DNA from: an uncultured Gammaproteobacteria bacterium
GTDB taxonomy: Bacteria; Pseudomonadota; Gammaproteobacteria; Steroidobacterales; Rariloculaceae
Assembly: GCA_963742115.1 (NCBI GenBank)
Contig: CAVUKQ010000004.1
Location: forward strand, 582,582 to 646,581
Reading direction: 5' to 3'
DNA: 64,000 nt
Position numbers and translations under genes: made by a program. The notes below the pieces were generated by a model. That model made no database searches and was not told the origin of the DNA. It worked only from the letters and a program-made list of their open reading frames with translations. This document shows positions 17,795 through 64,000 of the stretch, piece after piece (the first letter of the stretch is position 1; each line of letters opens with the position of its first letter).

Positions 17795-17831
17795 GGCGGG
17801 CGACTATAGCACCCCGGCCGTCTCGCAACGT

Positions 17832-18010: not shown

Positions 18011-18081
18011 GCAGGAAACATCCTGGCCGCGCTCGTCTCGAGGAGCCACGACGGAAAGGCAGCGTATCGTCGAGTTGAGGG

Positions 18082-19614: not shown

Positions 19615-19651
19615 GATCAAATCCTAGATGCGGTTCAGTCCGCCGACGTCA

Positions 19652-20936: not shown

Positions 20937-21017
20937 GGCTATGAACCTCTAAATCCTTGCTCTAAGTCTGACTCTAGTGCTGGCCTTAGTTCTAGCGGCC
21001 CGCTCTCACCCTAAAGC

Positions 21018-44087: not shown

Positions 44088-44095
44088 CACCGCCG

Positions 44096-44992
44096 ATGGC
44101 TACGGAACATTGGCCCGCACTGCCCTACGACGCGTGGAAAGACACCTACGCGACGCTGCACATGTGGGCACAGATCGTCGGCAAAGTAGCGCTCGCGCAG
44201 GCGCCGCCGCTGAACCACTCGTGGGCCTCCGCGCTGCAGGTCTCGGCCCGCGGGCTTCGTACCAACCTGCTGCCCCATGGCAACCGATCGTTCACGGTGG
44301 AGCTCGACTTCGTCGCTCACGAGCTCGTGATCGAGACGACCGACGGAGCGCGCCGGACGTTGCCGCTCGCGCCGCGCTCAGTAGCCGATTTCTACGCCGA
44401 CGTGATGACGACGCTCAAAGCTATGGGCCTGCCGGTCCGGATCTGGTCGACGCCGGTCGAGATTCCTTCGCCGATTCCGTTCGAGCAGGACAAGCTGCAT
44501 CACTCCTACGATCCCGAGCTCGCGAATCGCTTCTGGCGGATCGTCGTCGACGTGCAGCGTGTGTTCGCGGCGTGTCGCTGCGCGTTCATCGGCAAGTGCA
44601 GCCCCGTCCACTTCTTCTGGGGAAGCTTCGACCTCGCCGTCACTCGATTTTCCGGCAAGCCCGCGCCCGCACGAGAAGGGCCGCAATTCATGCGCGAGGC
44701 CTATTCGCACGAAGTGGTGAGCCACGGCTTCTGGCCCGGAAGCGGGCTGGCGCTTTACCCCGCGTTCTACGCGTATGCCGTGCCCGAGCCCAACGGCTTC
44801 AAAACGGCACGCGCCGAACCCGCCGAGGCTTTCTATCACGGCGAGATGGGCGAATTCCTGCTGCCCTACGAAGCGGTGCGCTCCGCGCCTTCACCCGAGG
44901 CGGCCATCAGCGCGTTCGTGGACAGCACGTACGCTGCGGCGGCAACGCTCGCCGGCTGGGATCGCGTGGCACTCGAGAGGCGGAAAGACTGA
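44096..44992 (+). CDS. DUF5996 family protein
   Basis: W.DT..TLH.W.QIVGK, F.GK.SPVHFFWGSFDLAVTRFSG, GFWPG, FYAYA.PEP. Confidence 0.85.
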   Translation: MATEHWPALPYDAWKDTYATLHMWAQIVGKVALAQAPPLNHSWASALQVSARGLRTNLLPHGNRSFTVELDFVAHELVIETTDGARRTLPLAPRSVADFYADVMTTLKAMGLPVRIWSTPVEIPSPIPFEQDKLHHSYDPELANRFWRIVVDVQRVFAACRCAFIGKCSPVHFFWGSFDLAVTRFSGKPAPAREGPQFMREAYSHEVVSHGFWPGSGLALYPAFYAYAVPEPNGFKTARAEPAEAFYHGEMGEFLLPYEAVRSAPSPEAAISAFVDSTYAAAATLAGWDRVALERRKD

Positions 44993-45026
44993 CGGCGCTG
45001 TCACCCGCCTCCGCGACTGACTCTCG

Positions 45027-45100
45027 CTCGTTCCGATGTTCCCGCGGAAGCGTGCACGACATCGGTGCGAAATCCCTCCGCGGAGGGATTTCACGCCGCC
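45027..45100. repeat. 74-bp double-palindrome element, copy 2
   Basis: Perfect 24-bp palindrome GAAATCCCTCCGCGGAGGGATTTC; CCGATGT...ACATCGG stem. Confidence 0.9.
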
Positions 45101-45101
45101 T

Positions 45102-45152
45102 TCAAATCCACAGCGCGCCGAGCTCGAGCAACGCGTCGAACGGCGGCTCGAG
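45102..45152 (-). pseudogene. Probable C-terminal remnant of a Uma2-family gene
   Basis: LEPPFDALLELGALWI-stop resembles the Uma2 ending (PFDA.EL.L.ALW); stop lies 1 nt from the 74-bp element. Confidence 0.5.
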
Positions 45153-45260
45153 CGGCCGGGCACATTCTCCGGATTCGCATCGGGTCGCGGCTCGCGGCGT
45201 GCGGCCGACGCGTGTGCGCCGAGACGCGGCGCCGGCGCGCCGAGCGGCGACCGCGTAGGC

Positions 45261-46670
45261 TCAAGGTTTCGCGCGCGCCGCGCGCCGAGCCGCGTTGCTG
45301 TCCGGAGTCACCCACTCCACGTCTTCCGCCGGCAACACACGCTGCTGGTAGACGAACAGCTCCGTCACGGCTTCGGAGGCAAACTCCAGCAGCGTCACCT
45401 GCAGTGGACGGTTTTCCTTTCGTGCTCGCTCGATCGCAGCATAGAGCGCCTCGAGCGACCCGACGGGTTGATGATCGACGCTCACGAGCAAATCGAATTG
45501 CTGAATCGCGGCGGCCTCCGCGTCGGAGCCAGGCTCGATGTGATGCACCATGAGCGCGTACTCCTGCGCGAGGTGGCCACGGGTCATCGGTTCCGCGTCG
45601 GCGAAGAGCGCGCCGGCGACCATCAGCCCGCGCCGCTCGAGAATCCGCGCGGCAGGCGGCCAGCTGCCGGTGACCTTCACGATGGCGTCGCCACGCCGCA
45701 CGAATAGAGCCACGTCGCCGAGCTTCCCGCGCAGCGCGTCGGCCAGATCCGTTTCGTTTGCCACTGTTTGCTCGGGACGTCCGACCGCGATGACTTGATC
45801 GCCGACGCGCAACGCGAGCGAGCCCGCGGCCAAGCGAGAGCGGGCCACTATGAGCGTTTGATCGCCGTACTCATCCACCGCGAAGTCGACGAGCCGATCC
45901 GGCGGCGACGGGTCTTGATCGTTCTCGAGCAGATGGAGGATCGTGCACGCGTAAGGCATCGGCACGGCGAACGACAGGCCTTCGACTTCCTCCTCGGAGA
46001 CCTTGGCGGCGTTGACTCCGACCACCTTGCCCGTCTCGAGGCTGATCAACGGACCGCCGGAGTTGCCCTCGTTGATGGGCGCGTCCGTTTGCAACATGGT
46101 GGGCCCTAGCCGCGACGTCACCGCCGAAGTGATGCCGCGCGTCCCAGTGAATCGGAATCCCCAGGGATGCCCGAACGCTCCAACCGGATGGCCCACCGGC
46201 GGCACGGCCTCGCAGTCCAGCTCAGGCACCGCCGGTTGAGTCGCGAGCGCCTTCGGGTCATAGGCCACAACGGCGAGGTCCAAGTGAGGATCCACGTAGA
46301 CACGCTCGGCGCGAATCGGTTTGAGGTCTGCAAACGCAACGCCCAAAGTGGCGTACGAATGACTGGCCACATGCGCATTGGTCAGGATCCAGCCGCGCTT
46401 CGCATCCACCACGAGCCCGGCGCCATAGTACGAGCCGATCTGGTCCTCGATGAACGGTCGACTGACCGAGCCGCGGATCTGGACCGTCCATTTCCGCGCT
46501 CCCGCAAAGGCCTGCTCTCCGGGGCTCTGCGCGAGCGCGAAATGCGCAACCGCGCAGCCTACGAGGAGAGTGCCGTAGCGCGTCGTGCGACCGGCTGCGT
46601 GCGCGCCTCGTGCCGTGAGTCGTTGACGAAGTCGTATTGGCACTAACGAAGCAATCCTGTTTGCGGCCAT
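45261..46670 (-). CDS. Trypsin-like serine protease with PDZ domains (HtrA/Nma111-like)
   Basis: ILTNAHV, DPHLDLAV, QTDAPINEGNSGGPL; two PDZ-like segments. Confidence 0.85.
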   Translation of the reverse strand: MAANRIASLVPIRLRQRLTARGAHAAGRTTRYGTLLVGCAVAHFALAQSPGEQAFAGARKWTVQIRGSVSRPFIEDQIGSYYGAGLVVDAKRGWILTNAHVASHSYATLGVAFADLKPIRAERVYVDPHLDLAVVAYDPKALATQPAVPELDCEAVPPVGHPVGAFGHPWGFRFTGTRGITSAVTSRLGPTMLQTDAPINEGNSGGPLISLETGKVVGVNAAKVSEEEVEGLSFAVPMPYACTILHLLENDQDPSPPDRLVDFAVDEYGDQTLIVARSRLAAGSLALRVGDQVIAVGRPEQTVANETDLADALRGKLGDVALFVRRGDAIVKVTGSWPPAARILERRGLMVAGALFADAEPMTRGHLAQEYALMVHHIEPGSDAEAAAIQQFDLLVSVDHQPVGSLEALYAAIERARKENRPLQVTLLEFASEAVTELFVYQQRVLPAEDVEWVTPDSNAARRAARAKP

Positions 46671-47116
46671 GGCGATCTCAACGCAATGTGAAGGCCGCCA
46701 CTATCGATCAAAGCGCGCGCACAATCACGCGCAACCGCGCGGGTCGGGCAGCGGACGCTCGCGTGCACTCGTCCCTCCCGAGATCGTTAGGTTACTTGTC
46801 GTTCTACCGCGACTTGTCAATCGGCTTTACGAATGCCGCCGGACCTGAGCGCGCGTGCCGCACAGCGAGGCGAGTGTCGCGCGCTTCGCGCAGGCGTCCA
46901 ACACCCTAAGCTCAGCCGTCGTCGCGCCGAGCGAACGAAGGACCGTCGAACGAAGCGCATCGCGAGAGCGTAGCGCGAACGTGATGCCAAACCCCGGCAC
47001 GCGACAAAGCCACTGGCTATAGCGATACCGCGGTGCTATTCCCTTGAGTGTTGCTTAGTCAAACAACGTCACGCATAGCGGCGCGGTCCCAACGGCCCGT
47101 CGAAGGAGAGAACCTC

Positions 47117-47569
47117 ATGAGCCTGTTCGGCAATATCCTCGAAAAGCTCGGTGTCGGCGGCGGGGCAGCTACGGGCCATCCGCCGCCCACGTCGACCGCG
47201 CCGCCCCCGACCACCGGCAAGATCGAGAGCGCAACACTCAGCGCGGGTCCCCCGCCGGGCGCGCCGACGCCCACGCCGACACCGACGCCGAGCTCGACGA
47301 CTCAGACGCCGGTCGATATTTCCGCTCTGCTCGAGCAGCGCGCCGCCGCGAGCTCACAGAAGCTCAACTGGCGCACGTCGATCGTCGATCTGCTCAAGCT
47401 GCTCGATATCGATAGCAGCATCGACACGCGCAAGCAGCTCGCGACGGAGCTCGGCTGCCCGCCGGAGTTCATGAGTGACTCAGCAAAGATGAACACCTGG
47501 TTGCACAAGGCCGTGCTCGCACGCGTCGCCGCCAACGGCGGCATCGTGCCGAAGGAGCTTCTGCATTGA
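47117..47569 (+). CDS. DUF3597 family protein
   Basis: AAGGAG RBS; Pro/Thr linker; LNWRTSIVDLLKLLD.DSS...RK.LA.ELG, DSA.MN.WLHK. Confidence 0.9.
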   Translation: MSLFGNILEKLGVGGGAATGHPPPTSTAPPPTTGKIESATLSAGPPPGAPTPTPTPTPSSTTQTPVDISALLEQRAAASSQKLNWRTSIVDLLKLLDIDSSIDTRKQLATELGCPPEFMSDSAKMNTWLHKAVLARVAANGGIVPKELLH

Positions 47570-47605
47570 TGAAGCGAGCTCGACACCACACGCGGGAGTA
47601 GACAG

Positions 47606-48217
47606 ATGAATATCACGGACCTCCTCGCCCGAACGGGCGGCCTCGGTTCGATCGCGCGCGAGCTCGGCATGAGCGAGACGCAGGCGTCGAACGGCGCCGC
47701 AGCGCTGCTGCCGGCGATCCTCGGCGGATTCAAGAAGCGGGCGCAATCCCAGCCCGGCGGTATCGAAGGGCTCGGTGACTCGCTCGGGCGGCTCGGCGGC
47801 GGCGGCTTGCTCGACGACGTGCTTGCACCCCAGCCCACTGACGTGAGCCGCGGCAACGAAGTGCTCGGCGAGATCTTCGGGTCGAAGGACGTGAGCCGCA
47901 CGGTGGCTCAGAACGCGGCATCGCAGTCCGGGCTCGACACGAACGCGCTGAAGAAGATGCTGCCGATGCTCGCGATGGTCGTCGCCGGCTACATGGCGAA
48001 GCACCGAGCCGGCGCGGCAGGGTCGTCCGCCGGCGGCGGCCTCGGCGGTCTCGTCGGGGGGCTCATTGGTGGCGGCGGTCGAACCGGCGCCAACCGAGCC
48101 GCAACTCCGGGCGTCGCGGGCGCGGCGTCGGGTGGAATCGGCTCGATGCTCGACCTGAACGGCGACGGCAACGCGCTCGACGACATCATGCGAATGGCCG
48201 GTAAGGCGTTTCGCTAG
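47606..48217 (+). CDS. DUF937 family protein
   Basis: GNEVLG.IFGSKDVSR.VA..A...SG, KKMLP.LA, LD..GDGN.LDDI. Confidence 0.85.
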   Translation: MNITDLLARTGGLGSIARELGMSETQASNGAAALLPAILGGFKKRAQSQPGGIEGLGDSLGRLGGGGLLDDVLAPQPTDVSRGNEVLGEIFGSKDVSRTVAQNAASQSGLDTNALKKMLPMLAMVVAGYMAKHRAGAAGSSAGGGLGGLVGGLIGGGGRTGANRAATPGVAGAASGGIGSMLDLNGDGNALDDIMRMAGKAFR

Positions 48218-50213: not shown

Positions 50214-53200
50214 TTACATCGCGCCGGTGAGGCTCAAGAACGTACCGTGATGATCGAAGCTTAGGTCGGTGAGGTCGTCCGAGAAGTCGGTGAAGTTGTA
50301 GCCGACACCGATCTTGAAGTGCGGGTTCAAGTAGCGCGATACGACGACGAGCGCGCCGCTGCGCTTGTCGGAAAGGTCCGGCATTTCGAGCACGCGCCCC
50401 TCGACGAGCCCTTCCCAGTTCTTCATGAAGCGGAAGTCGGTGCGAACGACGAAGAGGTCGGCCGTGTTGTCGAAGAACTCCGGGTTGTCGCGGCTCAAGC
50501 TCAGCTCGCCGCGGCGGTGCGCGTACTTGCCGCCGATCGACCAAGCCGGCGTGAGGTCGTAAGTCAGGTCGACCGCGCCGACGTGGCTCTTCTGGACGAA
50601 CTCGGCGGCCATGCTCCGCTGCGTGAGCTGATCCGTCGTCGGCACGTTGTAGAAGTACGTGTACTTGACCAGCGTGTTCAACCGGTCGTGGCGCACGGGC
50701 CGGAATGCGTAGCCGAGCACGGCCTCGGTGTAGCCGCCGTCGTAGAACATGCCGAGCGAGCTCACGCTCTCGGCGTGATTGAGCTTGCCGAGCAGGCGCG
50801 CCGCGTCGGAAAGCTGCCACTTGAAGTTGTTCCGCAGGAGCCACGTCTCGCGCGTGTTGAACGTGAGATCGGGCTGCTCGGTCTCGTCGGTGCGATACTC
50901 CACGCCGCTCGAGAGCTGCAGCGCGGTGAACCCGTAGCCGACGCGGAAGCCGGCGGCTTGGCGCTCGCGTCTCCGCTCCCGTCACCGCGTTGCGCAGCGT
51001 GCCGATGTCGGTGCTCGCACCGAGATTGAGCCGCTCCGTGGGCGCCAAGCTGATACCCGTCGAGTGCGTGAGACCCGACGAGAAGGCGGCGCTGCTCTGA
51101 TAGCGCTCCTCGAGATACACGCTGGTGCTGTCCGACAGACGCGTCTTGACGCCGGCGACGGTGTTGCCTTCGCTGCCGCGCGTGCCGAGCAAGCCGTTGT
51201 CGGTGCGCTCGTTCTCGAGCGCGTAGTTCAAGTACAACGTCGTACGATCGTTGTGCAGGTAGTTCGTGCGGACCTTGCCGCCGGCGCCCAAGTCGCCGTT
51301 CGACACCTCGGCGTCGATCTTCACGCGCTCCGCGATTCGGTACGAGCCGCCCGTGCCGACGCGACCGTTCTCCTCGCGATCGCCGTCGATCGACACCGTG
51401 TCTTGCACGAAGCCGTAGGTGCTCCAGCGGCGCTTGGAATCGTAGCCGACCTGAACGACGGCGTCGGTGCGCTCGCCCTGCTCTTGCGTCAGCGGCACGA
51501 TCGCTGAGTCGTCGCGGCGCTCGTCCATGCGCACGCCCGTGGCCACGCCCCAGTGATCGCTGAGCTCGTAGGCGACGTTGAGCTCCGTGCGCGCTGGCCG
51601 TGAGCCCGAGGTCCGCGCCGCGGTGGTCCGATTTTGCGCGCAACGAAAGGCGCTCGGTCATGGGCATCTGGAACGTGCCGCCGTAGTTCTCGGTGTCCGT
51701 CAGCGTCTGGAGGCCCGGCGCGGCGTAGCCGCCGTCCAAGCTCTGGGTATAGAGCGTGACCCGGCCGCGCGAGCGGTCGAAGAGGTCGCCGAGCCCGAGG
51801 CTCACGTCGGCGCGATAGCCGCCCGCCTCGGCGCTGGCGAACGACGCATCGTCGTACCCCGCGAAACCGAAGCCGCCGTCGTCGGAGTGCACGACGTTGC
51901 CGATGAGCCCTTCGGTCTGTGCGCCCTGCAACTTGAACCACGAATCGGAGCTGATGCGCACCGTCACGTCCTCGGCCTCGAGGCCGCTATCGACGTCACC
52001 CTCGTCGTTCGAGTTCGCCGTGAGGCCGACCTTCACGCGCTCGCCGAACCAGTAGTGGCCTTGCGCGCCGGTCGACAACGCGTCGATCTCGTCGAAGCCC
52101 GGCGTGTACTCGTAGCGCACGACGAGGTACGCCTCGTCGCCTTGCACGGCCCCGTCGCGCACGAGCAGGTCGTCCTCACGCGTCGCGTTGAGCGGCTCGG
52201 TGAGCAGCAGGCGGCCCTGCAGGTAATCGACGTCGTAGTCGATACCCGGCGTCAGACTGAGCGCGGCCGTGACGAGCCCGGACGCGCGATCGCGGTACTC
52301 GATGCGCACACGCTCGGAGCCGGCCAGGAGGTCCTGACGCTGCAAGAAGTACAGCGAGCCGCCCGTGCCGCGAAACTCCTCGCGGCTCGCGATCGTGCCC
52401 GGCTCGGCCGTGAAGCCGTCGAGCGCGAAGCGCCGCTCGCCGAAGCTCGTCGCGCGTTGCGACTCGTAATGCAGCTTCGCGCCGTAGAGCCCGCGGTCGA
52501 CTTGCGCGAGCTCGTTGTTCATGTAGTCGACCTGGAAGTTGCCCCACTCGCCGTAGCTTTCGTCGCGCCCGACCTTCGCGTAGAACTTGCCGAGCGTCGG
52601 CGCCATCTCCTCGACCGTGCCGTCGTCGCCGAACGTCGGGAAGTGGTAATCGGGATCGATGCGGCGAAACAGCGAGTCCGGCGATTTATCGAGGAAGTTG
52701 CTGAACAGATCCTCCAGCGGCCCGTCGCGCGTGTCGGCGCTCGCGGTCAGTCGCCAGTGCTCGTTGAACTTGCCGTTCACGAAGAACGCGAGCTGCGCGT
52801 CGGCCGAGGAGTCGAAGTCGTTGGGGCTGTTCTCGCCTTGCAGCAGCTCGATCGGACCGTTCGAGTCATTGCTCGTCAGGGTCAGATCGGCCATGCCGAC
52901 GTAGAACCAGTCCTTGCCCTCGAGCTCGATGTCGCGCAGGTACAGCTCGCCGTTGCCTTCCTCGTCGAGCACGGCCACTTCGACGGTGTGCACGCCCGAC
53001 GGCAGGATCTCCTGCGCGACGAAGCTGCCGTCGTCGGCGACGGGCACCGCGCGGCCTGCCACGTAGACGGTGTGACCCACCGGGATCGCGTTGCCGCGCA
53101 CGGTCACGGAGCCGCTCGCGAGCGGAATGTTGCGCAGTCCGAGCTCGTTCTCGCCGTACGCGACGCGCAGCGCACGATCCTGCGTCGCGGGCTCGACGAG

Positions 53201-55566
53201 CGCCGCATCCGCACCCGCGGCCGCATCCGCGCCACAGCCGCAGCCGCATCAGCCCCCGCGCGCATCCGCTCCGCATCCGCAGCGCCAGGCTCGGGCAGCT
53301 CCGCGTACGGCGCGCCGGCCGTCGTGAGCTCCGTCAGCAAGAACGCGTCGCCCTGGTCACCCGGTGGCTGGTCGGCGGACGGCGCGTCGGCGGGCGCCTG
53401 CTCGCGGATTCGGCGGCGGCTGCTCGGCGCGTGATTGCTCGGCCAGGGCACCGATCTCGCGATAGGCGATCCACAGCGGCCGGGGCACCGTCTCGTCGAA
53501 CGTGCCGCCGCTGCCGTACGCGCGCAGCACGTACTTGAGCTCGCGCGCCGGCGTCGCCAACGTATCGGGCTCCGGCAGCCACTCGCCGGAGCCGTCGGGA
53601 CCGAACACGACGACCGCGAGCGGCTCGGCCTCGAGCGACTGCTCGGGCGCGAAGATCCGCACCTCGGCGCGCTCGATGAAGTGCGAGTAGTTCGCGTACA
53701 TCGTGAAACGCACGGCTTCCGCATCCCAGCCGTCGTCGCCGCGGTAGAACGCGACCGTCGGCGGGTCGGCCGCGACCGCGAGCCGCCGATCGGCCTCGAG
53801 GCTGTCGAAGCCGAACTGGATGTCGGCCTGCTGCAGTGCGACGTCGGTGCAGCGCTGAATGTCCGCCGAGCTTCGGCCCGGATCGTCGAGCGGCTTGCCG
53901 TCGACGGTGATGCGCATCAGGTTCAGGCCGAACGCGTTCTTGGGCGTGAGCTCGCGCTTCAGCGGCGTGATCTCGACGCCGTCGTAGTCGTCGAGCTCGG
54001 CGATCTCGTCGTAGACGATTTGCACGACGACGTGCGACGTCTCACCTTGGATGAAGCCCGCGTTGACGACGTCGTCGGACTGCACGTAGCCGCGGCCCTC
54101 GAACTCGACTTGCTGCGGCGCGAGCTGCATCTCGGCCGCAATCGCTTCCATCGCGCGCCGCGCACGCGCGGCCGAGAGGCCGATATCGTCGCCGTAGACG
54201 AGCGTCGTGCGCCGCTCGAGGCGCTCGTTGCGCGTATAGCCGACGAAGCGCAAGCGCGCGTTCGTCTTGTCGGCGACCTCGGCGAGCCCGCGGCGCAGCT
54301 GCTCCGTGAGTCCGGCCGGCACGCTCGGCGCGCCGTTCGCGATCGCGATCTCCGGCAGCGCGCCCGACGGCGGATCGTAGACGCGCGTGACGAGCTCGTT
54401 GCCCGGCGCCGGGCAGAGCTGCGGCTCGTCGGGCAGATCCTGCAGCGGGTCGTCGTACCAGAACTCGACCTCCACGCGCCGATTGAGCGCGCGACCCTGC
54501 GCCGTCGCGTTCGAGCCGAGCGGCCGCGCCGTGCCGCGGCCGTCGCTCTCGACGGCCGACGTCGCGAGGCCCAACTCTTCCTGCACGGCCAGCGCGACGC
54601 GGCGCGCCTGCGCGCGCGAGAGGCCCACGTGATCGCCGTAGATGCGCTCGTTGCGTTCCGCCAGCGGCGCGTCGTCCGTGTAGCCGACGAACTTCACGAG
54701 CACGTTGTGCCGGTCGCTCAAGTTGGCGACCGCTTCGCGGATCTGCTCGACGTAGGCCGGAGCGACCTCCACGGCCTCGGCGCCGAAGCGCAGCGGTGCG
54801 ACGACGTTCTGCACGCGCGTGCGCCGCTCGTTGCCGTCGACGTAGCGCAGCCGGCAGACCTCTTCGATCCTGCAGACCTTGACGCGGCGGAACTCCTCCT
54901 CGACGAGCACCTCGTCGAGCGCCGTGCCTTGCTTGACCTCGTCGTACCAGACCTCGACCTCGACGCGCCGGTTCTGCGCGCGGCCGGCTTCGGTCTCGTT
55001 CGACGCGACGGGTTGCTGATCGCCGGCCCATTCATACGAGATGGCCTCGGCCGGCAGCGCTAGAGTCCCCTTCAAGAGCTCGGCGACCTCGCCGGCGCGC
55101 TCGCGCGACAAGCCTTCGTTGTCGCCGAACACCGCCGCCAGCGCCGGCGACAGCGGCTGCGTATCGGCATGGCCCACGAGGTGCAGCCGCACGTTGCGCC
55201 GGTCGCGCATCTTGTCGAGGATGCGGCGCAGCTCGAGCACCGTCGCGTCCGGGACCTCGGCGACGCCGACTTCGAAGCGGATCGGCGGCACGAGGCCCGT
55301 GAGCTTGACCGTCTCGAGCTTCTCCGCCGCGACCTCTTGCGCACTCGGAACCGATCGCCGGCTTGCGTGTTGACGACGGTCGGGTCGTGCACCCACTGCG
55401 AGGGTTTGATCTCGCCGGGCAGTTGGCGCTCCACGGCCTCGCCGCGCGCGGGCTCGCGAAACAATTGCGCCTCGGCGGCGCAGGCTCCGCTGAGCGCGAG
55501 CGCGAGCAGCGCGCGCGCCAGTCGTCGCTGTAGCGGCGTCAACGGTTTCGGCGTCAACGATTTCAT
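50214..55566 (-). CDS. Giant outer-membrane protein (about 1780 aa): tandem OmpA-like domains + C-terminal beta-barrel; at least 5 frameshifts
   Basis: Signal peptide at 55566 (ATGA overlap); GHAD..LS.ERA..NRRVEV, GYTD..LSR.QA..NRRVEV, third degenerate copy; alternating strands ending GYNFTDFSDDLT...FLSLTGAM. Confidence 0.75.
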
Positions 55567-58500
55567 TGGCGATCCCCCTTGCGCCGCTCGCGCGCATCGG
55601 TCGGCTCGCCGCGGCGCCAGAACACTTCGGGCTCGATCGCAAGCTCGTAGCTCGGATCGCCGTCCGTGGCTTGCCACGCCTCTTCGATCTGCCGGCGCAG
55701 CGCCTTCACGCGCGCATCGACGAGCTGCGGATCCTCGAGATCGGCGAGATACGAGAGGCGCAGCACGGCCGGAGAGGCGCGCAGCTCCGTCAAGAGCAGG
55801 TCGAGACGCGGCCGCCAGATCGGGCGAATCTCCGTGCTGCCGGGCTCGAACACGGCGTCCGCGAGATCGAGGCCGATGACGCGGTGGATCGAGGCGCCGA
55901 AGTTGAACTCGAGCGCCTTACCGCGCGTCGCGCGCTGCACTTGCAGGTTCTGCGTCGACGCCCGGTAACCGCTCGGCAGCGTGCGATCGTCGAGCTTCAG
56001 CACGAAGTTGCTGCCGCGGTCTTCGCGCGGCGTGATCGCGCACGTGATGTGGAAGCGGCCGAATTGGTCCGTCGTCGCGAGCAACCCGCGCGCCGTCGCG
56101 ACCCGGACTTGGGGAATGCCGCGCTCGCCTTCGTCCTGGAGGCCGTTGCGGTTCGCGTCGTCGAAGACCTTGCCGATGACGTCCGTGCAGTCGAGGGCCG
56201 GGTCCGGAACGATGCGCACGGTCGCGGACGCTTCGCCCGACAACGCGCGGCCGGTGAGCGCGCTCATCGCCTGCGCGCGGTTGACGAACTCGCCTTCGCT
56301 GACGCCGGAGCCGACGGCGAGCAGCAGCATCAGCGTGTGGCGCCGGTCGGGCGTCACGTCGAGACCCGTCCACGCGAGCTCGCGGCCCGCGACGACGGGC
56401 TCGCGCGGCTCGCCGTCGAGGCGCGCCGAGCCTTCGACGTAGCGGAAGCCCGCCGGGAAGCGATCGACGACGGTGACGTCGGTGAGGTTCACGGCGACGC
56501 CGTTCGCGACCGTGATCACGTACGGCACGAGCTGACCGCGCGCGACGTTCACCATCGGCGTCGTCTTCGTGATGATGACGGACTCGTCGAGGTCGAGATC
56601 GAGCGGAATGTGGTTGTTGAAGATCTGGCTCGAGCCCGGCACGAGGCTCGAGTCGAACGTCAGGTGCAGGTAGTAGCTCGTGCCGCTCGTGCGCGGCGCG
56701 ACGGACGCCGGCGGCTGGATCTCCGAGGGCGCCGCCTCGCAGTGCTGCGCCGTCGCCGGCACGGCGTCGTCGATCGACGCCGGGCACGACGGCACGACGA
56801 ACGCGGCCGTTCCCGCGGCCGACTGCGGCGGAATGATGTCGGACACGCCCGGCAAGTACGCCGCGGACGGCGGAGTCGCCTGCAGCAGATAGCTCCCGCC
56901 GCTCGGGCACGCTGGGTCGGCGAAGCTCAGATCGAACTTGTAGTAGCCGTCCGCGAGCGTGACCTGGCCCTGCTGGTTCTCGTCGTAGAAGCAGGCCGAC
57001 GGCAGCGCCGCGCCGCTCTCGGCGGCGAGCGTCACGGTGGCCCCCGCGATCGGCGCTCGCGACAGCGCGTCGTAGACGATGCCGTTCGGGTCGATCGGCA
57101 GATTCAAGTTCTGCAGATTGCTGCCCGACAGCACGACGATGTCCGTGATCCGTTGCAGATCGTTCGTGAAATCGGAATGCGCGCGGCCGAGCATCGCCGT
57201 CGTCGCGGTGGCGCCGGGTCGACGGAACTTGCAGCTCGTAGACATCGGTCGTCGCATAGTTCGGCTCGACGCCGCTCATGCGGTAGACGCCTTCGCGCGA
57301 CGTGCGCGCGGTGTAGGCGAGCGAGTCGTTGAGATACAGCTCGACCGTCCAGCCCTCGAGCGCGATCTCGTTCGCGTCGAACACGCGATCGAAGTCCGCG
57401 TCGTGCCAGACGCGCCCGTTGACGAACCCGGTGCCCGGGATGCCGCCGACGTCGATCGAGACGCTCGCGCTCGCTTGTCTGGGCGGGGTCGTTCCAGTAG
57501 ACGGTGCCGGTGTTCGTCACGCGCGTGCCGATCGGCCAAGTTCGCGTCCAGCACGGCGCGGAAGCGCAGTAGGATCGTGCGGCCCGGCTGCAGGGCGCCA
57601 TAGGTCGTCGAGTAGTCGGCGGTCAGCAGCGAGCCCGCGACCGTGATCCCGGTCGTCGCGCCGTTCAGCGACCACGACTGATCCACGAACGTGAGATACC
57701 CGGGCATCGGCACCGCGATGTCGTCGCGGATCACGACGGCGTACGCCGGCAGGGTGCCGATGTTCGTCGCTTGCACGACGTACTCGAGCGTCGCGCCCGC
57801 GAGCGCGGGCCCGCCGCCGACGACCGACGACGTTCTTCGTGATCTTGCAGCGTCTGCAAGTTGCCGACGACGACGACGGTCGGCTCGGGCCCGGTCGCGG
57901 GGTTGCCGTCGCCGTCGGTGAGTAGATTCGGCAGCTCGGCCGTGTCGACGAGCGGCCTGGTTCGCGATCACCGTGCCGGGCGGCACGCCGTCGTTGACGC
58001 GCAGATCGAACTGCACGATGGCCGTCTGGCCCGGCGACAGCGTGCCTGCGCCGGCGCCAGGGAGCGGCGGCGTCAGGTTCGACGAGCTCACGTCGACGCC
58101 CGCGACGAGCGGCGACACGCCGCCGTCGGGCCGGCCCACGGGCTGGCCGTTCAGCGTCATCGAGTCGGCGACGTAGGTCGTGTTCGCGGGCACCGACGTC
58201 GCGCAGCACGGCTTGCGTGATCGGCAGCAGCGCCGTTGTTGTAGATCCTGATCGTGTAGCGCAGCACGTCGCCCGCATCGACGATGCCGGGCGACGATCG
58301 AATCGACTTGCAGCGCCGCCGCCTTCTCGGCGTAGAGGCGCGGCACGACGGTGACGGTGTGCGCGTCCTCGTGGTCGACGGTGCCGACGGTGCCGTTGGT
58401 CAGCGTGCGCGTGTACGCGAGGCGCATCGGGTTCGAGCTCGGGCCGTTGTACCACTGCGTCGCGCCGGCCACGTTCGTCAGCGCGCCGCCGTACTGAAAC

Positions 58501-59571
58501 GGCGAGTCGAGCTGCGTGCGATACGTGACGATCAGGCGTTGGCCGCCCACGCCGATCACCGAGGCCGCGCTCAACGTCGTGAACGTGAGCTCGCACGCCG
58601 TGCCGTTGTAGGCGAGCGTGTAGTCGGTCCCTTGGACCAGAGGTCCCTTGCCCGTGATCGGCGTCACGCCGTCCGCCGCGAACACGCGCGCGCTCAGGAT
58701 TTGCGGCGTGGCGTCGCACATGCCGCCCGTCGGGCGGTTGGGCAGCCGATCGAGCAACGTGACGTTGAACGCGTCGGCGACGCCGAGGTTTTGCACGCTC
58801 AGCGCGAAGTCGCCGGGCTCGGCCGGATTCATCGTCGCCGGACCCGATTTGTCCATCGTGAGCACCGGCGTGCCGGGCGGCAGATTCGGCAACGTGAATT
58901 GCCCCACGAGGCCCGAGCTGTTGATCGTGCCGCCTTCGCGCGTGATGAACTCGGACACCGGATTGCCGTTGTTGAGGAAGCTCATCGACAACGTGTAATC
59001 GACGCCGCCGACGTTGAACGTCGTGGGCGTGGGCGATGCGGCGATCGTCACGCGGTCCGTGCACCCCTCTCCGGGCGGTGTCGGATAGGGACAGGGCATC
59101 TGGTTGTTCGGCGTTTCCACGTGGTTGAACGTGAAGGTGAAGGTCAACGGAGGGCGTGGGACGCCATCGACACTGATCACGAGCACGACGTCGAGCTGAA
59201 CCGAGGTCAACGATGGATCGTCGACCTCGAAATTCCGATGCGTGAATGTCCCGAGCGAGAAGAAAGGGATGGGCCCGGGCAACGTGAAAGGCGGCGGGGC
59301 CGTCGCGGTGAAGTCGTAGCCGCTCTGCGGCGTGCCCATCGTGTCGCCCCACCTGATGATCGAGGTCGGGTTGCCGTTCGTGATGACGGGATCGCCCGGC
59401 TGGCTTCCGGGGAGGTTGTCCGACCGGATCGCGCCAGCCTCCGGTAACGGATGAGTAAGTGATGTCGGCCGCCGACGCGCTCCGTGGCATGGCACAAACG
59501 GCAGCGAGCAGCGCGATGGCGAGCCATCCGCTGCTGCGTGAATCACTGCCGATCGTCCGGCCGAAAGACAT
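55563..59571 (-). CDS. Giant DUF11-repeat adhesin-like protein (about 1330 aa) with N-terminal choice-of-anchor-K-like domain and SdrD-B-like domains; about 10 frameshifts
   Basis: GAGGG RBS, signal peptide; IRWG..QSGY, FTHRNF, HVETPN..C; four K...Y.I...N...D.(L/V/F)P...N units; GRVWHDAD.D and GKVFDDANRNGLQD. Confidence 0.75.
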
Positions 59572-59643
59572 TCGCGTTTCCCTCTAAGTCCACCCATGTG
59601 CGATCGAAGTCACGGAAGGACCGAGGGACGCCCGCGAGGGGCT

Positions 59644-59752
59644 GTTCCGGCGGTCCCGCTGTCGTGGAGCGCGCTTCGTAGTCGAAGAAGGCGCTCGGTA
59701 GACCGGTGACTTTGCGTCGCCACCTTTCGGTGGTTTTGCCTTTGTCAGAATC
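59644..59752 (-). ncRNA. c-di-GMP-I (GEMM) riboswitch
   Basis: UUCUG-ACAAAG-GCAAAA-CCACC-GAAA-GGUGG-CGACGCAAAG-UCACCGGUCUAC...ACGACAGCGGGACCGC-CGGAA; P1, GAAA-capped P2 and P3 all pair; about 70 nt upstream of the DUF11 ATG. Confidence 0.9.
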
Positions 59753-59802
59753 GTTACGAAGCTTGTTCTAGATGCTCGTGCGGCACTCCGTTGCGCGTGT
59801 GC

Positions 59803-61238
59803 TCACGCGGCTGGCAGAAAGTCGATCGGATACACGATCGTGATCGCCGCGACATCCTTGGCGCCGAAGTCGAACGTGCGCACGCGCTCGAGCACCTGCG
59901 TGGCGAGAGCGGGCGCGTCCATGTCGCTCGACACGAGCTCGAGGAACGACACCGCGCCGCTCGGCTCGATCGTCAGGCGCAGCACCATCTGGCCGCGCAG
60001 CGTCGGAACGTTGCGCAGCTCGCGGTTGTAGAGCCGATAGAGCGACGCCTTGTAGCGGTCGAACACGATCTGAATCTCTTCGTCGGTGCGGCCCGCCGCC
60101 CCGCCGGCCCACGTGCGATCGCCCGTTCCCGCAGCGCCGCCCGGGCCCGTCCCGCCGCCGATCGTGTTTTGCACGCGACCTGCTTCGACGCCCGCGAGGC
60201 TGCCTCCGCCGCCGCCGTCGCCGCCGACTTGGCGGCTCAGCGACGCGAGATTGATGCCGCCGCTCGATCCGGGCGCGAGCGAGGTGACCATCGACCGCGA
60301 CGGCAGCCGGCTGTCTCCGGCACCGGCGTTGCTGACGCGGGCTGCCGAGCCGATCTGCGCGGCGGGTCTGCGCTCGGCGATCGTCGCCAAGCTTTCGCGG
60401 AACGCGAGAATGCCGGCCGCTTCCGCGCGCTGCCGCGGCGCCGGCTCGGGCGCCGGCGCGGGCGCGTCGACGGGCGGCGCCTCGGGCTTCGGCTCGTTCG
60501 CGAGCACGGGCTCGGGCGTCGGCTTCGGCTGTTCCGGCTTGATTTCCTCGACGGCCGGCGGAGGCGGCAAGGGCCGGCGGGGGCCGAGCTCGATGAATCG
60601 CACGACGCGCTCGGGCAGCTCGAGCGCCTCTTCGGGCGCGAGCCTGTGGAAGCGGGATCAGCGGCGTCACCACGCCGGCGACGAGCGCGATCAGCAGCGC
60701 CGTCGACAACGCCCGGCGGAAGCGCGAATCGTCCTCGCCGACGCGCGACCACGGCATGCGCTGCGGGCGGTTCTCGACCGGGCCGACCTCGCGCTCGACG
60801 ATCCATTCGCGGCGCCGCTCCTCTTCTTCCTCTTGAATCTCGAACAGGTCGCCCTCGAGCAGATGGAGGACCTCGTACCCCTGCTTGATGTCGTCGAGCA
60901 GCGCCTGACGCTTTTCTTCGATGACTTCGACTTGCTCCGTGAACGCACCGAGCCGTTGGCGAACTTCGCCGAGATGCCGGTCGGCCTCGCGCTCGTCCGC
61001 GCGCTCGCCCCAGAACATGCTCGAGACGCCGAGCGCGCGCAGCCGCTCGAGCGAATCGCAGACGTTCTGCACGAGCTCGTGCTGCTCGCGCTTCGGACGC
61101 AGCTCCGAGAGCTCCCCATCCACCACGCGCAGATGGTTCGTGAGACCGCCGAGCTTGGACTCGACGCGGTCGATCTGCTCGCGCAGCGGTTGCTCTGCGT
61201 CTGTGATGGGCTCTGTTGATAGCGATAGCGGTGTTCAC
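59803..61238 (-). CDS. AgmX/PglI (GltG-like) TonB-type energy transducer; +1 frameshifts near 61213 and 60644
   Basis: Coiled-coil N-terminus, single TM, PERVVR, Pro-rich linker, RTDEEIQ.VFD..K..LY.LY.R.LR..P.L.G...L.LTI.PSG.V...YP..F. Confidence 0.8.
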
Positions 61239-61268
61239 GTGTTCACCGTGTCGGTCTTGTCGACGCGC

Positions 61269-61811
61269 TCAGTCGTTGCTCGCGACGCTTTCCAACGCGA
61301 GGTCGGACGCCTTCTGCAGGACCGCGAGCGAAAGCTGCCCGTAGCCGGCCGCCGTCGACGTGGCCATGACCTTGCGCAGCAGCAAGAACGGCAACTCCTT
61401 GTCCGCCATGATCGTGACCTTGCGAGCCGCGATCCGCTCTTCCTCGGGGAGCGCCGCGAGCCGCACCATGTCGGTCGCGTCCGCTTCGAGCTCCGCCTGC
61501 AACGTCGGGATGACGGCGTCCTCGGCCGCTAGGATCTCGTCGATTCGCGCGATCGGTTTGCCGTGCACGATGACGTCCCGCTCGCCGACGATGACGACCA
61601 CGGTGTTCGTGAGGTCGGTCTCGGCGATCGACTCCGGCAGCTGCACGTCCTTGCTGTCCGGCACTACCGCGACTTGCTCCGTCGAGTAGACCAGCAGGAA
61701 GAACACGAGCACCGTCAGCATGTCGATCATCGCCACGAGGTTGATGACGACGGCCTTCGCCTTGCCCTTGTGATGGCGCACGATTCTCGAAGCGCGACCC
61801 ATGTAAATCAT
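61269..61811 (-). CDS. ExbD/TolR family (AglS-like)
   Basis: INLVAMIDMLTVLVFFLL with conserved Asp; VQLPES; IMADK.LPF.LL.KVM.T. Confidence 0.9.
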   Translation of the reverse strand: MIYMGRASRIVRHHKGKAKAVVINLVAMIDMLTVLVFFLLVYSTEQVAVVPDSKDVQLPESIAETDLTNTVVVIVGERDVIVHGKPIARIDEILAAEDAVIPTLQAELEADATDMVRLAALPEEERIAARKVTIMADKELPFLLLRKVMATSTAAGYGQLSLAVLQKASDLALESVASND

Positions 61812-61839
61812 CGATGTGCCCCTCGACCTCTAGTCAGAC

Positions 61840-62352
61840 TCAGAGCGGCGCGTCGCCGACCGATACTTGCGGAAACAGCTCGACGCGGTTCACGCGATTC
61901 AATGTCGCGTCCCGCTCTTCGGCGACACGCACCCGGTCCATGACCGCGACGACGACGTCGTACGAGACATAGGGCTCGACGAGGAGGGTCGCCTCCTCTT
62001 TCGAGGGGAACTGCTCCTTGATGCGCCGCAGATGCTCCGTGAGCTGCGCGTAGTCGTAGCCGCTGTCGGTCTTCTCGATGCGATTCAAGAGCCCCGTCGA
62101 GCGATCGCCGATCTCGATACCGGATTCGCGCACCGTGATCTCGAGCTCGAACGCCGGCGGCTCGGGGAGCGCCGTGGACTGCGCGGAAGGCAGGTTCAGC
62201 TGCAGGACGGCGAGCCTGATGAAGCCGCCGTGGACCAGCAGGAAGAACACGAGGATCGTCATCATGTCGATCATCGACACGAGGTTGATCTCGGTGTGCT
62301 CCTGCTTGTGCAGGTGCCGCGCGAGCCGCGAGCGTCGTACCGTGAGCTCCAT
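61840..62352 (-). CDS. ExbD/TolR family (AglQ-like)
   Basis: INLVSMIDMMTILVFFLL; IK..FP, V.YD.VV.VMD, LFP.VS.G. Confidence 0.9.
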   Translation of the reverse strand: MELTVRRSRLARHLHKQEHTEINLVSMIDMMTILVFFLLVHGGFIRLAVLQLNLPSAQSTALPEPPAFELEITVRESGIEIGDRSTGLLNRIEKTDSGYDYAQLTEHLRRIKEQFPSKEEATLLVEPYVSYDVVVAVMDRVRVAEERDATLNRVNRVELFPQVSVGDAPL

Positions 62353-62433
62353 CGGATGGTTCCTCGCTACGTCGAAGCGCCGTCGTAGTTGGCCGTGTTG
62401 TCGGCCGTCGTTGCTATGGACGCCGAAGCGAGC

Positions 62434-63144
62434 TCACGCCGGCTGCGGCACGGCCGGCTGGCGCGACACGAATTCCTCGGCCGCACCGGTGCCGAGAGCC
62501 ACCTTCGCGTGCACCGCGCGATCCGTGAGCGCGTTCAAGAACTTCACGGACGCCATTTCGATGCCCGAGACGATCTTCGCGGTCTTCGACTGCAGCACCT
62601 GGTGCACCAGCACCAGCGGGATCGCGACCATGAGGCCGAACGCCGTGCAGTTCATGCCGATCGAGATGCTCGCGGACAGGAGCTCCGCCTTGTCGGCGAG
62701 ATCGGCGTTCGACACCGCGGTGAACGCCTCGATGAGTCCGATGATCGTGCCGAGCAAGCCCGCGAGAGTCGCCATGTTGGAGAACGTCGCGAGATAGGCC
62801 GTGCGCTTCTCGAGCTCCGGCATGATCTCGATCAAGCTCTGCTCCATCGCGAGCTCGATGTCGTCGCGGCGCCGCACGGCTCCCTGGCGCGCCAACCCCA
62901 TGCTCAGGATCTGCGCAATCGTGGAGCTGTCCTTGCTCGCGACTTCCCGCGCGGCTTGAAAGTCACCGCTCCCGATCAACGGCTCGAGCTTCCGCCAGCT
63001 CTCCCTGTTCTTGTTGATCACGAGCGTCAGCGTGACGTAGCGCTCGATGGAGATCGCGACTCCGATCGCTAGGATCGCGAGGATCGGATACATGAAGAAC
63101 CCGCCGTCCCCGAAGAACTTCACGACTGTATAGATGACGTCCAT
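62434..63144 (-). CDS. MotA/TolQ/ExbB proton channel (AglR-like)
   Basis: GGFFMYPI, ATLAGLLGTIIGLI.AF, ISIGMNCTAFGL.VAIP. Confidence 0.92.
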   Translation of the reverse strand: MDVIYTVVKFFGDGGFFMYPILAILAIGVAISIERYVTLTLVINKNRESWRKLEPLIGSGDFQAAREVASKDSSTIAQILSMGLARQGAVRRRDDIELAMEQSLIEIMPELEKRTAYLATFSNMATLAGLLGTIIGLIEAFTAVSNADLADKAELLSASISIGMNCTAFGLMVAIPLVLVHQVLQSKTAKIVSGIEMASVKFLNALTDRAVHAKVALGTGAAEEFVSRQPAVPQPA

Positions 63145-63340
63145 GTCCGAGATCCTCCCTGAAAAAATCTGTGTTGCGACGTCGCGTCACGCCCCTTGGC
63201 GTGGCCGCGTCCCCATCGTCGCGTCGAGCAGCCTATTCCTCGAAACTCGACGAAGGTGTGACGGACTCGACGTTGCGCTACATCAAATCGTCGGCTCCAG
63301 CGACGACGTGCTTCACATAAGCGAAAACGTCCGTCGAGAC

Positions 63341-63760
63341 CTATTTCACTTTTCCGGAACGAATGCCGTAGTACTTGAGCTCGCGCATGAACACGTCCTT
63401 GTCGACGGCGCGAATCCTCGTATCGAGCGCCCGCGACACGCCGATGCCGTTGCCGATCTCCGAGCTCTTCCACGGCACGATGACGAGCGACTTCGGCGTT
63501 TCCTGGTTACCGAGAATCGACATACCGGACATCGACTTCGGGTCCGCCGGCGTAGCGCCGGCCTCATGCGCAGCAGAAGCCTCGCGCGCAGCGACAGCCT
63601 CACGCGGAGCAGCGGCCTCACGCGGAGCGGCAGGCTCCCGCGCAGCGGCGGCTGCACGCGCCGCACCAGCCTCACGCGCCGCAGCGGGCGTTTCCTGCGC
63701 CATCGCCCCGCCAGCGAAGCCAGCGAGCAGCATTGCAACGAACACGAGTTTCTTCGGCAT
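63341..63760 (-). CDS. Small exported GltF-like protein with Ala-rich repeats
   Basis: Signal peptide; SILGNQETPKSLVIVPWK...VDKDVF.RE; sits between TPR and ExbB genes. Confidence 0.65.
   Translation of the reverse strand: MPKKLVFVAMLLAGFAGGAMAQETPAAAREAGAARAAAAAREPAAPREAAAPREAVAAREASAAHEAGATPADPKSMSGMSILGNQETPKSLVIVPWKSSEIGNGIGVSRALDTRIRAVDKDVFMRELKYYGIRSGKVK
63559..63684 (-). repeat. Seven imperfect 18-nt in-frame repeats
   Basis: AAREAG AARAAA AAREPA APREAA APREAV AAREAS AAHEAG. Confidence 0.7.
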
Positions 63761-63770
63761 GTCGTGCTCC

Positions 63771-64000
63771 TTACGGGCTCGAGCGGCCCTTGATGTCGGC
63801 GATCCAGATGGCGACTTGCTGGTCGTCGGGCACGAGCGCCTGGTACGCCTCGTAGTGCCGTACGGCGCAGGCGTAGTCGCGCTGATACAAGTCGCAAAGG
63901 ATCGCGAGGTTTCGGTTCGCGAGATGGAAATCGGGATAGAGCGCGAGCGCCCGCTCGTACTGCGTGCGCGCCTCGGCGAAGCGCCCTTGCTTGCGGTAGA
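63771..64000 (-). CDS. TPR protein (GltE/AglT-like), 3' end only; not in the ORF track
   Basis: [35 protein letters not shown]...A..HYEAY...WIAD...stop at 63771. Confidence 0.8.

Follow-up and report, generated by a model that had tools for sequence, protein, structure and literature searches.

What does the core complex of the Agl-Glt machine handle in Gammaproteobacteria? The accessible portions of the published accounts describe this complex as recognised since 2011 to be widespread in the class, as the presumed ancestor of the gliding and spore-coat machines of Myxococcus, and as being of unknown function (PMC3169522, PMC3858216, 10.1101/2020.07.22.216333). The question is raised by a stretch of 64,000 nucleotides, hereafter the window, from an uncultured gammaproteobacterium of the Rariloculaceae (G000:C4:582582-646581; the assembly, G000, comprises 5.6 Mb in 15 contigs at 67% guanine plus cytosine (GC) and is rated 76% complete). 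The region from position 50214 to the end of the window belongs to a single nine-gene envelope operon on the minus strand, of which seven whole genes and part of an eighth lie in the window. Its upstream genes encode a motor driven by the proton-motive force (PMF), which its sequence marks as a specialised paralogue of the Agl-Glt core complex of Gammaproteobacteria. The last two genes form a cassette that encodes a fibrillar adhesin with a DUF11 stalk and a protein that combines tandem OmpA-like domains with a predicted giant beta-barrel. Motors of this kind, which we call long-type after the long form of their GltG-like, TonB-like protein, are strictly linked to the adhesin-barrel cassette.

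Linkage of the motor to the adhesin-barrel cassette

The initial annotation, made from the letters of the window, had treated motor and adhesin as parts of one system, and the two do travel together in other genomes. A scan of one genome per GTDB species gave 561 relatives of the TonB-like gene, and the counts in this paragraph refer to the best 80 of these 561. The adhesin gene follows on the same strand in 61 of the 62 loci that have at least 1.5 kb of downstream sequence, the single miss having 1570 bp, and all six upstream genes are present in 58 of 58 loci with at least 8 kb upstream. The OmpA-barrel gene is reached in 44 loci and lies beyond reach in 6 others despite downstream sequence of at least 9 kb, presumably because the adhesin there is longer. 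The carriers are mostly metagenome-assembled genomes labelled Gammaproteobacteria, Woeseiaceae, Steroidobacteraceae or Pseudomonadales, with a few others; among those with a name Woeseiaceae and Steroidobacteraceae predominate. They include two cultured strains, Povalibacter uvarum DSM 26723 (locus L067) and Lentisalinibacter orientalis YNA5901 (L075).

The arrangement recurs in genomes of other families, in which GC content ranges over 40-67%: in G027, G055, G360 and G323 the adhesin and the OmpA-barrel gene stand directly downstream of the motor and in the same order. The space taken by the adhesin is 1412-2783 codons in the 44 loci, 3427 residues in G027 and about 15 kb in G360. In G150 the motor cluster is 2.6 kb from the start of its contig, and an adhesin-barrel pair is found near the end of another contig.

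The canonical form of the complex behaves differently. Luciano et al. (2011) described a core of gltC, D, E and G with aglR, Q and S, which sits in one region in Gammaproteobacteria, where its function is unknown, and which is thought to be ancestral to the Myxococcus gliding machine (accessible part of PMC3169522). A match to the TonB-like protein occurs in 73 of 401 sampled genomes of the class. Most of these matches cover only residues ~150-477 and belong to proteins of ~310-350 residues (short type), while full-length, long-type matches occur only in G027, G055, G360, G323, G150 and the window genome, where the match comes in two pieces; G333 is a doubtful case. Twenty short-type loci from other families all keep the seven genes and their arrangement, and within ~8 kb downstream of these clusters there is no adhesin or barrel homologue (0 of 20) and no common downstream gene, the largest family being found in 3 of the 20 loci.

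Both types coexist in the window genome. Its contig C8 (G000:C8:91826-100624) has a canonical seven-gene cluster with a TonB-like protein of 327 residues and without adhesin or barrel, followed by a major facilitator superfamily transporter and an inositol monophosphatase. In a quick maximum-likelihood search with ExbB sequences, 74 long-type and 21 short-type copies fall on opposite sides of one branch (SH-aLRT 99), as do the window copy and the C8 copy; this tree covers gammaproteobacterial-type clusters only, with no Myxococcus sequences, and its two groups are defined by the feature under study. The initial annotation had identified the gene set as the Agl-Glt core. That identification stands insofar as the cluster matches the gammaproteobacterial core set out in the accessible part of PMC3169522, but it has to be narrowed, since the window carries a distinct paralogue and the canonical copy is the one on C8.

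None of the three ingredients, core complex, DUF11 fibrillar adhesin and OmpA anchor, is new in itself. Within Creative Commons-licensed PMC articles and bioRxiv we found no description of the core complex as linked to adhesin or barrel genes, although the supplementary gene maps of Luciano et al. may show it. The same sources gave no account of a distinct clade of core paralogues marked by a long GltG-like protein, of its strict tie to the cassette, or of the barrel module as a large unnamed family. A paralogue tied to one adhesin-barrel cassette provides a concrete, testable candidate cargo for the core complex, and does so in bacteria that are in culture and harmless.

The operon in the window

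The genes of the operon in the window, from upstream to downstream, are as follows.

63771-64000, minus strand: C-terminal end, with stop, of a tetratricopeptide repeat (TPR) lipoprotein, its last 76 codons (from the translation)
63341-63760, minus strand: small secreted protein of 139 residues (from the open reading frame and its translation)
62434-63144, minus strand: proton-channel subunit of the ExbB/TolQ/AglR type, 236 residues (PF01618, 84.2 bits)
61840-62352, minus strand: first ExbD/TolR-type subunit, 170 residues, transmembrane Asp in SMIDMM (PF02472, 61.0 bits)
61269-61811, minus strand: second ExbD/TolR-type subunit, 180 residues, transmembrane Asp in AMIDML (PF02472, 44.9 bits)
~59803-61250, minus strand: GltG-like, TonB-like protein, long form (tblastn pieces; NF033768 on the orthologue)
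55563-59571, minus strand: DUF11 fibrillar adhesin (DUF11 and SdrD_B matches in 55563-59597)
50214-55566, minus strand: OmpA-barrel protein (two OmpA stretches in 53357-55642)

The co-oriented TPR end, the ExbB and the two ExbD genes with their transmembrane Asp were all read correctly in the initial annotation, as was the ATGA overlap that couples the adhesin and OmpA-barrel genes at 55566-55563. Its two giant proteins need qualification. The DUF11 domains and the tandem OmpA domains are present, and intact orthologues reach 1330 and 1739 residues, but the window has no open frame corresponding to either the ~1330-residue or the ~1780-residue protein then described. No open frame in the operon region exceeds 781 residues, the longest on the minus strand being 781, 773, 761 and 564. 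Third-position GC shows the coding frame shifting within both large genes and the TonB-like gene, and intact orthologues used as tblastn queries align piecewise, the adhesin in frames -2, -3, -2 and -3 (at least four segments), the OmpA-barrel gene in frames -2, -1, -1, -2 and -3 (at least five segments), and the TonB-like gene in frames -1 and -2 (at least two segments). The adhesin copy has at least three frame errors, which yield an in-frame TGA at 57276-57278, the OmpA-barrel copy at least five, and the TonB-like copy at least two, at about 60600 and near its start. The TPR genes upstream, outside the window, are fragmented as well.

These frame breaks are indel errors of the assembly that occur genome-wide, and not gene decay, because three observations agree. 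Essential genes are broken too: rpoB has an open frame of 922 residues in G000 and 1365-1372 in four relatives, and dnaE one of 614 residues against 1035-1254 in four relatives. The orthologues are intact, with open frames of 1728-1940 residues for the OmpA-barrel gene in five relatives. Finally, contigs from four independent soil-metagenome runs, 92-99% (mostly 95-99%) identical to the window, differ from it by one-base indels at 50966, 53230-53268, 53402, 57232, 57479, 57829 and 59420, which are sites of frame change; these sites are among the indels listed, and the comparison gave ten more. A pseudogene reading of the giant genes is excluded on the same grounds, and programmed readthrough or frameshifting at the TGA at 57276 was likewise ruled out, since indels flank it at 57232 and 57479 in two to three runs. 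The errors probably explain how a genome in only 15 contigs comes to be rated 76% complete, and because single-base indels are frequent, any reading of G000 that is based on open frames needs care. Examples of the broken essential genes are found at C15:175643-177319 (rpoB) and C14:585543-586328 (dnaE). We based family assignments on intact orthologues from G008, a genome of the same genus that is 99% complete, and G014, also of the same genus.

The TonB-like gene defines the long type. The window copy is 69-74% identical to the G008 orthologue (478 residues) over the C-terminal part, and the orthologue matches the AgmX/PglI C-terminal domain model NF033768 at 54.5 bits (cut-off 40), in agreement with the initial annotation. 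More specific models stay below their cut-offs (GltG equivalog, 19.2 bits against 650; GltJ, 15.7 against 450; tonB_Cterm, 20.3 against 27.1). About 150 cytoplasmic residues with a coiled-coil-like character are followed by a transmembrane helix, Pro-rich and Gly-rich linkers and the AgmX/PglI-type C-terminal domain. Pfam gives only sub-threshold coiled-coil noise for the cytoplasmic domain, the orthologue has no FHA domain, and the best match in a PDB sequence search with the protein has an E-value of 0.033.

Extending the locus upstream, as the initial annotation had suggested, revealed two TPR genes. The one whose end lies in the window encodes a protein of ~1200 residues, near GltD in size and with a GltE-like tail, and runs to about C4:649955; the second, of a 681-residue type about the size of GltC, follows further upstream at C4:650069-652013. 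By tblastn the longer protein is 78-86% identical to its G014 orthologue, which has 1209 residues, the lipobox LVAVGC, matches to TPR families and a tol_pal_ybgF match of 115.6 bits (cut-off 90.1). Its tail gives a weak match to the GltE model (21.6 bits, cut-off 225), and in G027 this GltE-like tail is a separate gene of 220 residues. A PorW/SprE model matches the protein weakly (48.3 bits, cut-off 250).

The small secreted protein, called GltF-like in the initial annotation, is encoded in every cluster examined, 58 of the long type and 20 of the short type. It consists of a signal peptide, a low-complexity linker and a C-terminal part of ~65 residues that is conserved among 51 aligned orthologues (..SILGN.E.PKSLVIVPWK..VDK.VF.REL.YY..). 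Its gene occupies the position that gltF holds in the Myxococcus gene order, and this position and a similar size are all that the two have in common. No family in Pfam, NCBIfam or the ESM Atlas matched it, and homology to GltF was dropped for want of a family match; NF033759 and NF033757 are TraA and CglB models. The accessible part of PMC3169522 confines GltF to Myxococcales and Bdellovibrionales. A GltF-like role is possible by analogy, because an AlphaFold-based model of the Myxococcus machine places GltF as a bridge between GltC and the GltG C-terminal domain, via a strand and a C-terminal helix (PMC11761067).

The transmembrane position of the first ExbD subunit holds Asn in 66 of 73 long-type and 17 of 20 short-type loci, which makes the window's Asp a minority variant. 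The second subunit keeps its Asp in 75 of the 76 long-type loci and in every one of the 20 short-type loci. With the first subunit mostly Asn and the second Asp, most such motors would have a single protonatable ExbD species. Identity between the window and G008 (L012:14531-16236) is no more than 63, 39 and 37% for ExbB and the two ExbD proteins (61269-63144). For their neighbours it is higher: 75-84% to G008 in the small protein, the adhesin and the barrel protein, and 77-94% to G014 in the TPR proteins. In the ExbB tree the window copy stands beside L032 and L055, apart from G008. From these sequences it looks as though the motor genes were replaced inside the operon.

The genes beside the end of the operon have no evident tie to it: positions 42066-48217 encode a DUF4382 protein and DUF5996, DUF3597 and DUF937 proteins, and a DegP-like trypsin/PDZ protease lies at 45261-46670 on the minus strand. 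Up to 44% of sampled 31-mers of positions 50214-60200 are shared with soil, rhizosphere, bog and freshwater-sediment metagenome runs from 16 studies, and the source organism or its close kin seems to be common in soils.

Adhesin, barrel and the proposed work of the motor

By its domains, the DUF11 gene encodes a fibrillar adhesin with a DUF11/CLIPPER stalk. DUF11 has recently been solved as the CLIPPER stalk domain of Gram-negative fibrillar adhesins (accessible part of 10.1101/2025.04.25.650565). The intact G008 adhesin, 1330 residues long and ATGA-coupled to the 1739-residue OmpA-barrel gene, has a signal peptide, a choice-of-anchor-K/THxN N-terminal domain, three DUF11 repeats, and CarboxypepD_reg and SdrD_B-like domains (TIGR01451, 97.2 bits, cut-off 24; PF01345, 80.2 bits in three stretches). 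A model of its last 615 residues (pLDDT 84.9) has four beta-sandwich domains and a terminal alpha/beta domain. Gram-positive pilins, SdrD and CLIPPER (9ifr) are the structural neighbours, with Z of 13.1-13.8, in matches that cover the sandwich domains and not the terminal alpha/beta domain. The stalk of the adhesin is variable and its C-terminal ~600 residues are conserved, most strongly over the final ~200, where the majority of the invariant columns fall.

The OmpA-barrel orthologue (1739 residues) begins with a signal peptide and a conserved N-terminal motif. Two OmpA-like domains follow at residues 94-196 and 261-368, then ~370 residues without a family, an Ig-like sandwich, and a C-terminal giant beta-barrel that ends in Phe. 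PF00691 matches two stretches each in the window piece (75.2 bits) and the orthologue (67.4 bits), and TssL, OprF, Rv0899 and MotB are the PDB sequence matches of these domains. For residues 371-740 Pfam returns only sub-threshold coiled-coil noise. Between the OmpA part and the remainder of the protein, the window has a low-complexity stretch rich in Ala, Arg and Asp (53188-53456) with no counterpart in residues 700-751 of the G008 orthologue and with five indel differences from the other runs; it may be a variable linker, or simply difficult to assemble.

The C-terminal module is large and widespread. A search of 1.84 billion proteins with the last 1199 residues of the OmpA-barrel protein retrieves 3102 cluster representatives (E <= 0.001), and the conserved part, ~980 residues, is C-terminal both in proteins of 1100-1450 residues and in giants of up to 6889. 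None of those looked up has a meaningful name, and a search of the ESM Atlas gave unnamed clusters only. The family consensus ends in ...GKF, an ending usual for outer-membrane barrels. Pfam finds no Plug, TonB_dep_Rec, autotransporter or POTRA match in the protein.

The barrel that the initial annotation placed at the C-terminus is supported by a confident AlphaFold2 model of residues 741-1739 of the orthologue, built from 83 aligned sequences (pLDDT 85, pTM 0.80). The model shows beta structure throughout, with a small sandwich ahead of 35-44 long strands, a number that varies with the length cut applied. A single barrel with some 40 strands is what we infer from the model's secondary-structure string and from alignments that span its residues from about 100 to 999. 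Foldseek retrieves only generic large barrels at TM-scores of 0.15-0.22 (TonB-dependent transporters at 0.15-0.17). With an exhaustive aligner, Z is about 14 for ordinary porins and SprA alike, and the SprA match (6h3i_A; Z 14.2, root-mean-square deviation 12.5) covers 654 residues, by far the longest overlap; the autotransporter barrels of AIDA-I, EstA and BrkA reach Z of 8.9-9.9. This large unnamed family, with a predicted fold that has no close solved relative, would bear on how Gram-negative bacteria display very large fibres.

Adhesin and barrel also occur together away from the motor, and at times as one chain. The barrel module is present in 43 of 400 sampled genomes of the class. At ten further barrel loci a giant gene stands just before the barrel gene in nine and is fused to it in one (L112, 2253 residues), and the C-terminal ~600 residues of those giant genes are homologous to the window adhesin, more weakly in L113. 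This motor-free fusion occupies L112:6520-13281. A motor-linked fusion exists as well, in L018 (~11700-21344), where adhesin and barrel share one open frame without a second signal peptide. Single proteins elsewhere combine DUF7507, DUF11, two OmpA domains and the barrel module (P0132), or four DUF11 domains, SdrD_B and the barrel module (P0017). One barrel-module match (G185:C2:461089-463986) lies inside an open frame of 11777 residues, which would be an exceptionally large fused adhesin-barrel protein. The conserved pairing and the fusions suggest that adhesin and barrel protein act together. Motor-linked barrel proteins are 1709-1760 residues long, against 1209-1450 for motor-free ones.

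What, then, would the motor do for the cassette? Both cassette proteins would be exported by Sec, and the barrel would be inserted by BAM and tethered to peptidoglycan through its OmpA domains. In the inner membrane, ExbB and the two ExbD subunits would form a proton channel, from which the bitopic GltG-like protein would reach into the periplasm with its AgmX/PglI-type TonB-like domain; two periplasmic TPR scaffold proteins and the small secreted protein would complete the motor side. The conserved C-terminal end of the adhesin may stay with the barrel protein on the periplasmic side while the stalk passes outward through the wide lumen. The motor, acting through the GltG-like protein and the TPR scaffold, would power the passage of an adhesin of 1300 to more than 5000 residues. 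We consider PMF-powered export, extension or re-setting of the adhesin fibre through the barrel the most likely function, though we would put it a little short of an even chance. We place export first because the motor-linked adhesins are very large, because a role as a transport device has been suggested for the core complex, and because of the precedent of the type IX system, which to our knowledge is the only other case of a PMF motor with a barrel of such size and which secretes giant adhesins. The fuller statement, that an ancestral Agl-Glt core motor threads, extends or retracts giant adhesins through a single-chain barrel of ~40 strands, and is an unrecognised outer-membrane machine for handling proteins, strikes us as possible but rather doubtful. 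If true, it would give the core complex its first cargo and describe a barrel at least as large as the largest known, and the ~980-residue module, with its 3102 cluster representatives, would represent a new class of adhesin translocator and anchor.

Several observations weigh against export through the barrel. The cassette occurs without the motor, and such cassettes can therefore function at a basic level on their own: of 25 genomes with a barrel match at E <= 1e-100, 14 have some TonB-like match and 11 have none, and in genomes with a strong barrel match the short-type TonB-like gene sits on another contig or far off. Where adhesin and barrel are fused, the periplasmic OmpA domains separate the stalk from the barrel, and surface display would thus need the chain to thread back through the barrel. 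The conserved motif that follows the barrel protein's signal peptide was considered as a motor-specific docking site and ruled out as such, since motor-free homologues have it too. The likeness to SprA is that of big barrels in general, with porins at equal Z and low TM-scores, and the strand count was read from the secondary-structure string of the model and not from its coordinates. The 80 loci behind the linkage counts are those most like the query, which biases that sample to close relatives.

In another account motor and cassette are neighbours without functional coupling: an autonomous cassette with type-V-like self-export would have settled downstream of a core paralogue, with shared regulation at most. 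The wide occurrence of the cassette without the motor fits this account, as does the fact that no motor-specific feature of the cassette has been identified. It fits poorly with an order and orientation kept in 61 of 62 loci and across 40-67% GC, with linked motors that have their own ExbB branch and their own form of GltG-like protein, with the absence of the cassette from canonical clusters (0 of 20), and with motor-linked barrel proteins that exceed motor-free ones by 300-500 residues, and we think it quite improbable. Less probable still, and in our view very unlikely, is uptake, in which the giant barrel would be an energised import channel analogous to a TonB-dependent transporter and the fibre would capture polymers or particles. 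Import is what a TonB-like protein with ExbBD usually powers, the structural matches to the barrel include TonB-dependent receptors, and the genome is rich in such receptors (83 PF00593 matches). None of those 83 matches lies in the window, as the initial annotation had noted in other terms; the barrel protein has no Plug or TonB_dep_Rec match and resembles TonB-dependent transporters only at TM-scores of 0.15-0.17, and adhesin-barrel fusions fit anchoring or export better than import.

Two other accounts keep the motor coupled to the cassette and give it different work, and we regard each of them as unlikely. One is surface motility, where motor force passed through the TPR scaffold would drag or cycle the barrel-adhesin complex along the envelope, in the manner of a primitive gliding or focal-adhesion apparatus. 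The Myxococcus gliding machine is presumed to have evolved from this motor set (accessible part of PMC3169522), a surface adhesin couples that machine (PMC9946355), and the extra cytoplasmic domain of the long GltG-like form recalls the cytoplasmic domains of GltG and GltJ, which link to cytoplasmic partners (PMC11761067). Two peptidoglycan-binding OmpA domains should hold the barrel protein in place, however, and the Myxococcus-specific parts were not found (GltG, 19 bits; GltJ, 16; CglB, 11.5). The other is tethering in the manner of Tol-Pal, where the motor and a TolA-like protein would bind the OmpA-domain barrel and release it from peptidoglycan ("mobilise and capture"), the adhesin being merely carried. 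The parts do parallel Tol-Pal, with a TolQ/TolR-like motor, a TolA/TonB-like protein, a YbgF/CpoB-like TPR protein (115.6 bits) and a Pal-like OmpA domain, but the TolQ (53.1 bits, cut-off 221), TolR (25.5, cut-off 127.3) and Pal (26.5, cut-off 125.35) models all score far below their cut-offs and the operon has no TolB-like gene. Moreover, these TPR proteins occur in all 20 short-type loci without an OmpA protein beside them, which argues that the TPR-motor unit does not need an OmpA partner, and the long-type motor is paired as strictly with the adhesin as with the barrel.

Comparison with known systems

The closest system is the gammaproteobacterial Agl-Glt core itself as described in the accessible part of PMC3169522, which shares with the window a clustered TolQ-like gene, two TolR-like genes, a GltG-like TonB-like gene, TPR genes and an extra small gene. 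The window cluster differs as a separate paralogue whose GltG-like protein has an added cytoplasmic coiled coil, in being followed by adhesin and OmpA-barrel genes, which 20 of 20 canonical clusters lack, and in having two TPR genes in place of three, the GltD-sized protein including the GltE-like part.

Tol-Pal offers a TolQR-like motor, a TolA-like protein, a YbgF-like TPR protein and an OmpA/Pal-like domain on an outer-membrane protein; the operon differs in having no TolB and in carrying its OmpA domains on a 1739-residue barrel protein paired with an adhesin. It does not group with TonB-ExbBD uptake systems either, with tonB_Cterm below its cut-off and no TonB-dependent receptor in the window. 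DUF11/CLIPPER adhesins such as B9T28_05395 of Acinetobacter silvestris, as presented in the accessible part of 10.1101/2025.04.25.650565, likewise have a signal peptide, a non-repeat N-terminal domain, a stalk and an OmpA-like anchor. Here, by contrast, the anchor is a separate, ATGA-coupled, 1739-residue giant-barrel protein, and the pair is tied to a motor operon. Type V secretion resembles the cassette in its passenger with a C-terminal or partner barrel that has a terminal Phe, encoded by fused or adjacent genes, but its barrels have 12-16 strands against the ~35-44 predicted here, and in the fusions described above periplasmic OmpA domains lie between passenger and barrel.

With the Agl-Glt machine and CglB of Myxococcus xanthus, the operon shares a PMF motor of the Tol/Exb class, an AgmX/PglI-type TonB-like transducer, TPR scaffolds, and a barrel platform in the outer membrane on which an adhesin is displayed. 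None of GltA/B/H/K, GltI, GltJ and CglB was detected; for CglB the best score in the whole, 76%-complete window genome is 11.5 bits (cut-off 200). The Myxococcus platform uses small porin-like barrels and a VWA-lipoprotein adhesin, unlike the one giant, OmpA-tethered barrel and DUF11 fibre found here.

A parallel for adhesin movement is provided in Flavobacterium by GldLM with SprB, and the SprA barrel of that system has 36 strands. No sequence relationship to the type IX system was found, the SprA match being at the level of fold only and GldLM not having been searched for. In logic, the type IX system (GldLM/PorLM, SprA and SprB-type adhesins; accessible part of PMC8986121) is similar to the machine we propose, in that a PMF motor is joined by a single-chain barrel of very large size and by giant adhesins with repeats, and it differs in belonging to another phylum, in its motor family and in the T9SS C-terminal sorting domain, which is absent here. 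If the proposed machine is real, the combination of a motor, a giant barrel and a giant adhesin would have arisen twice, once here and once in type IX secretion.

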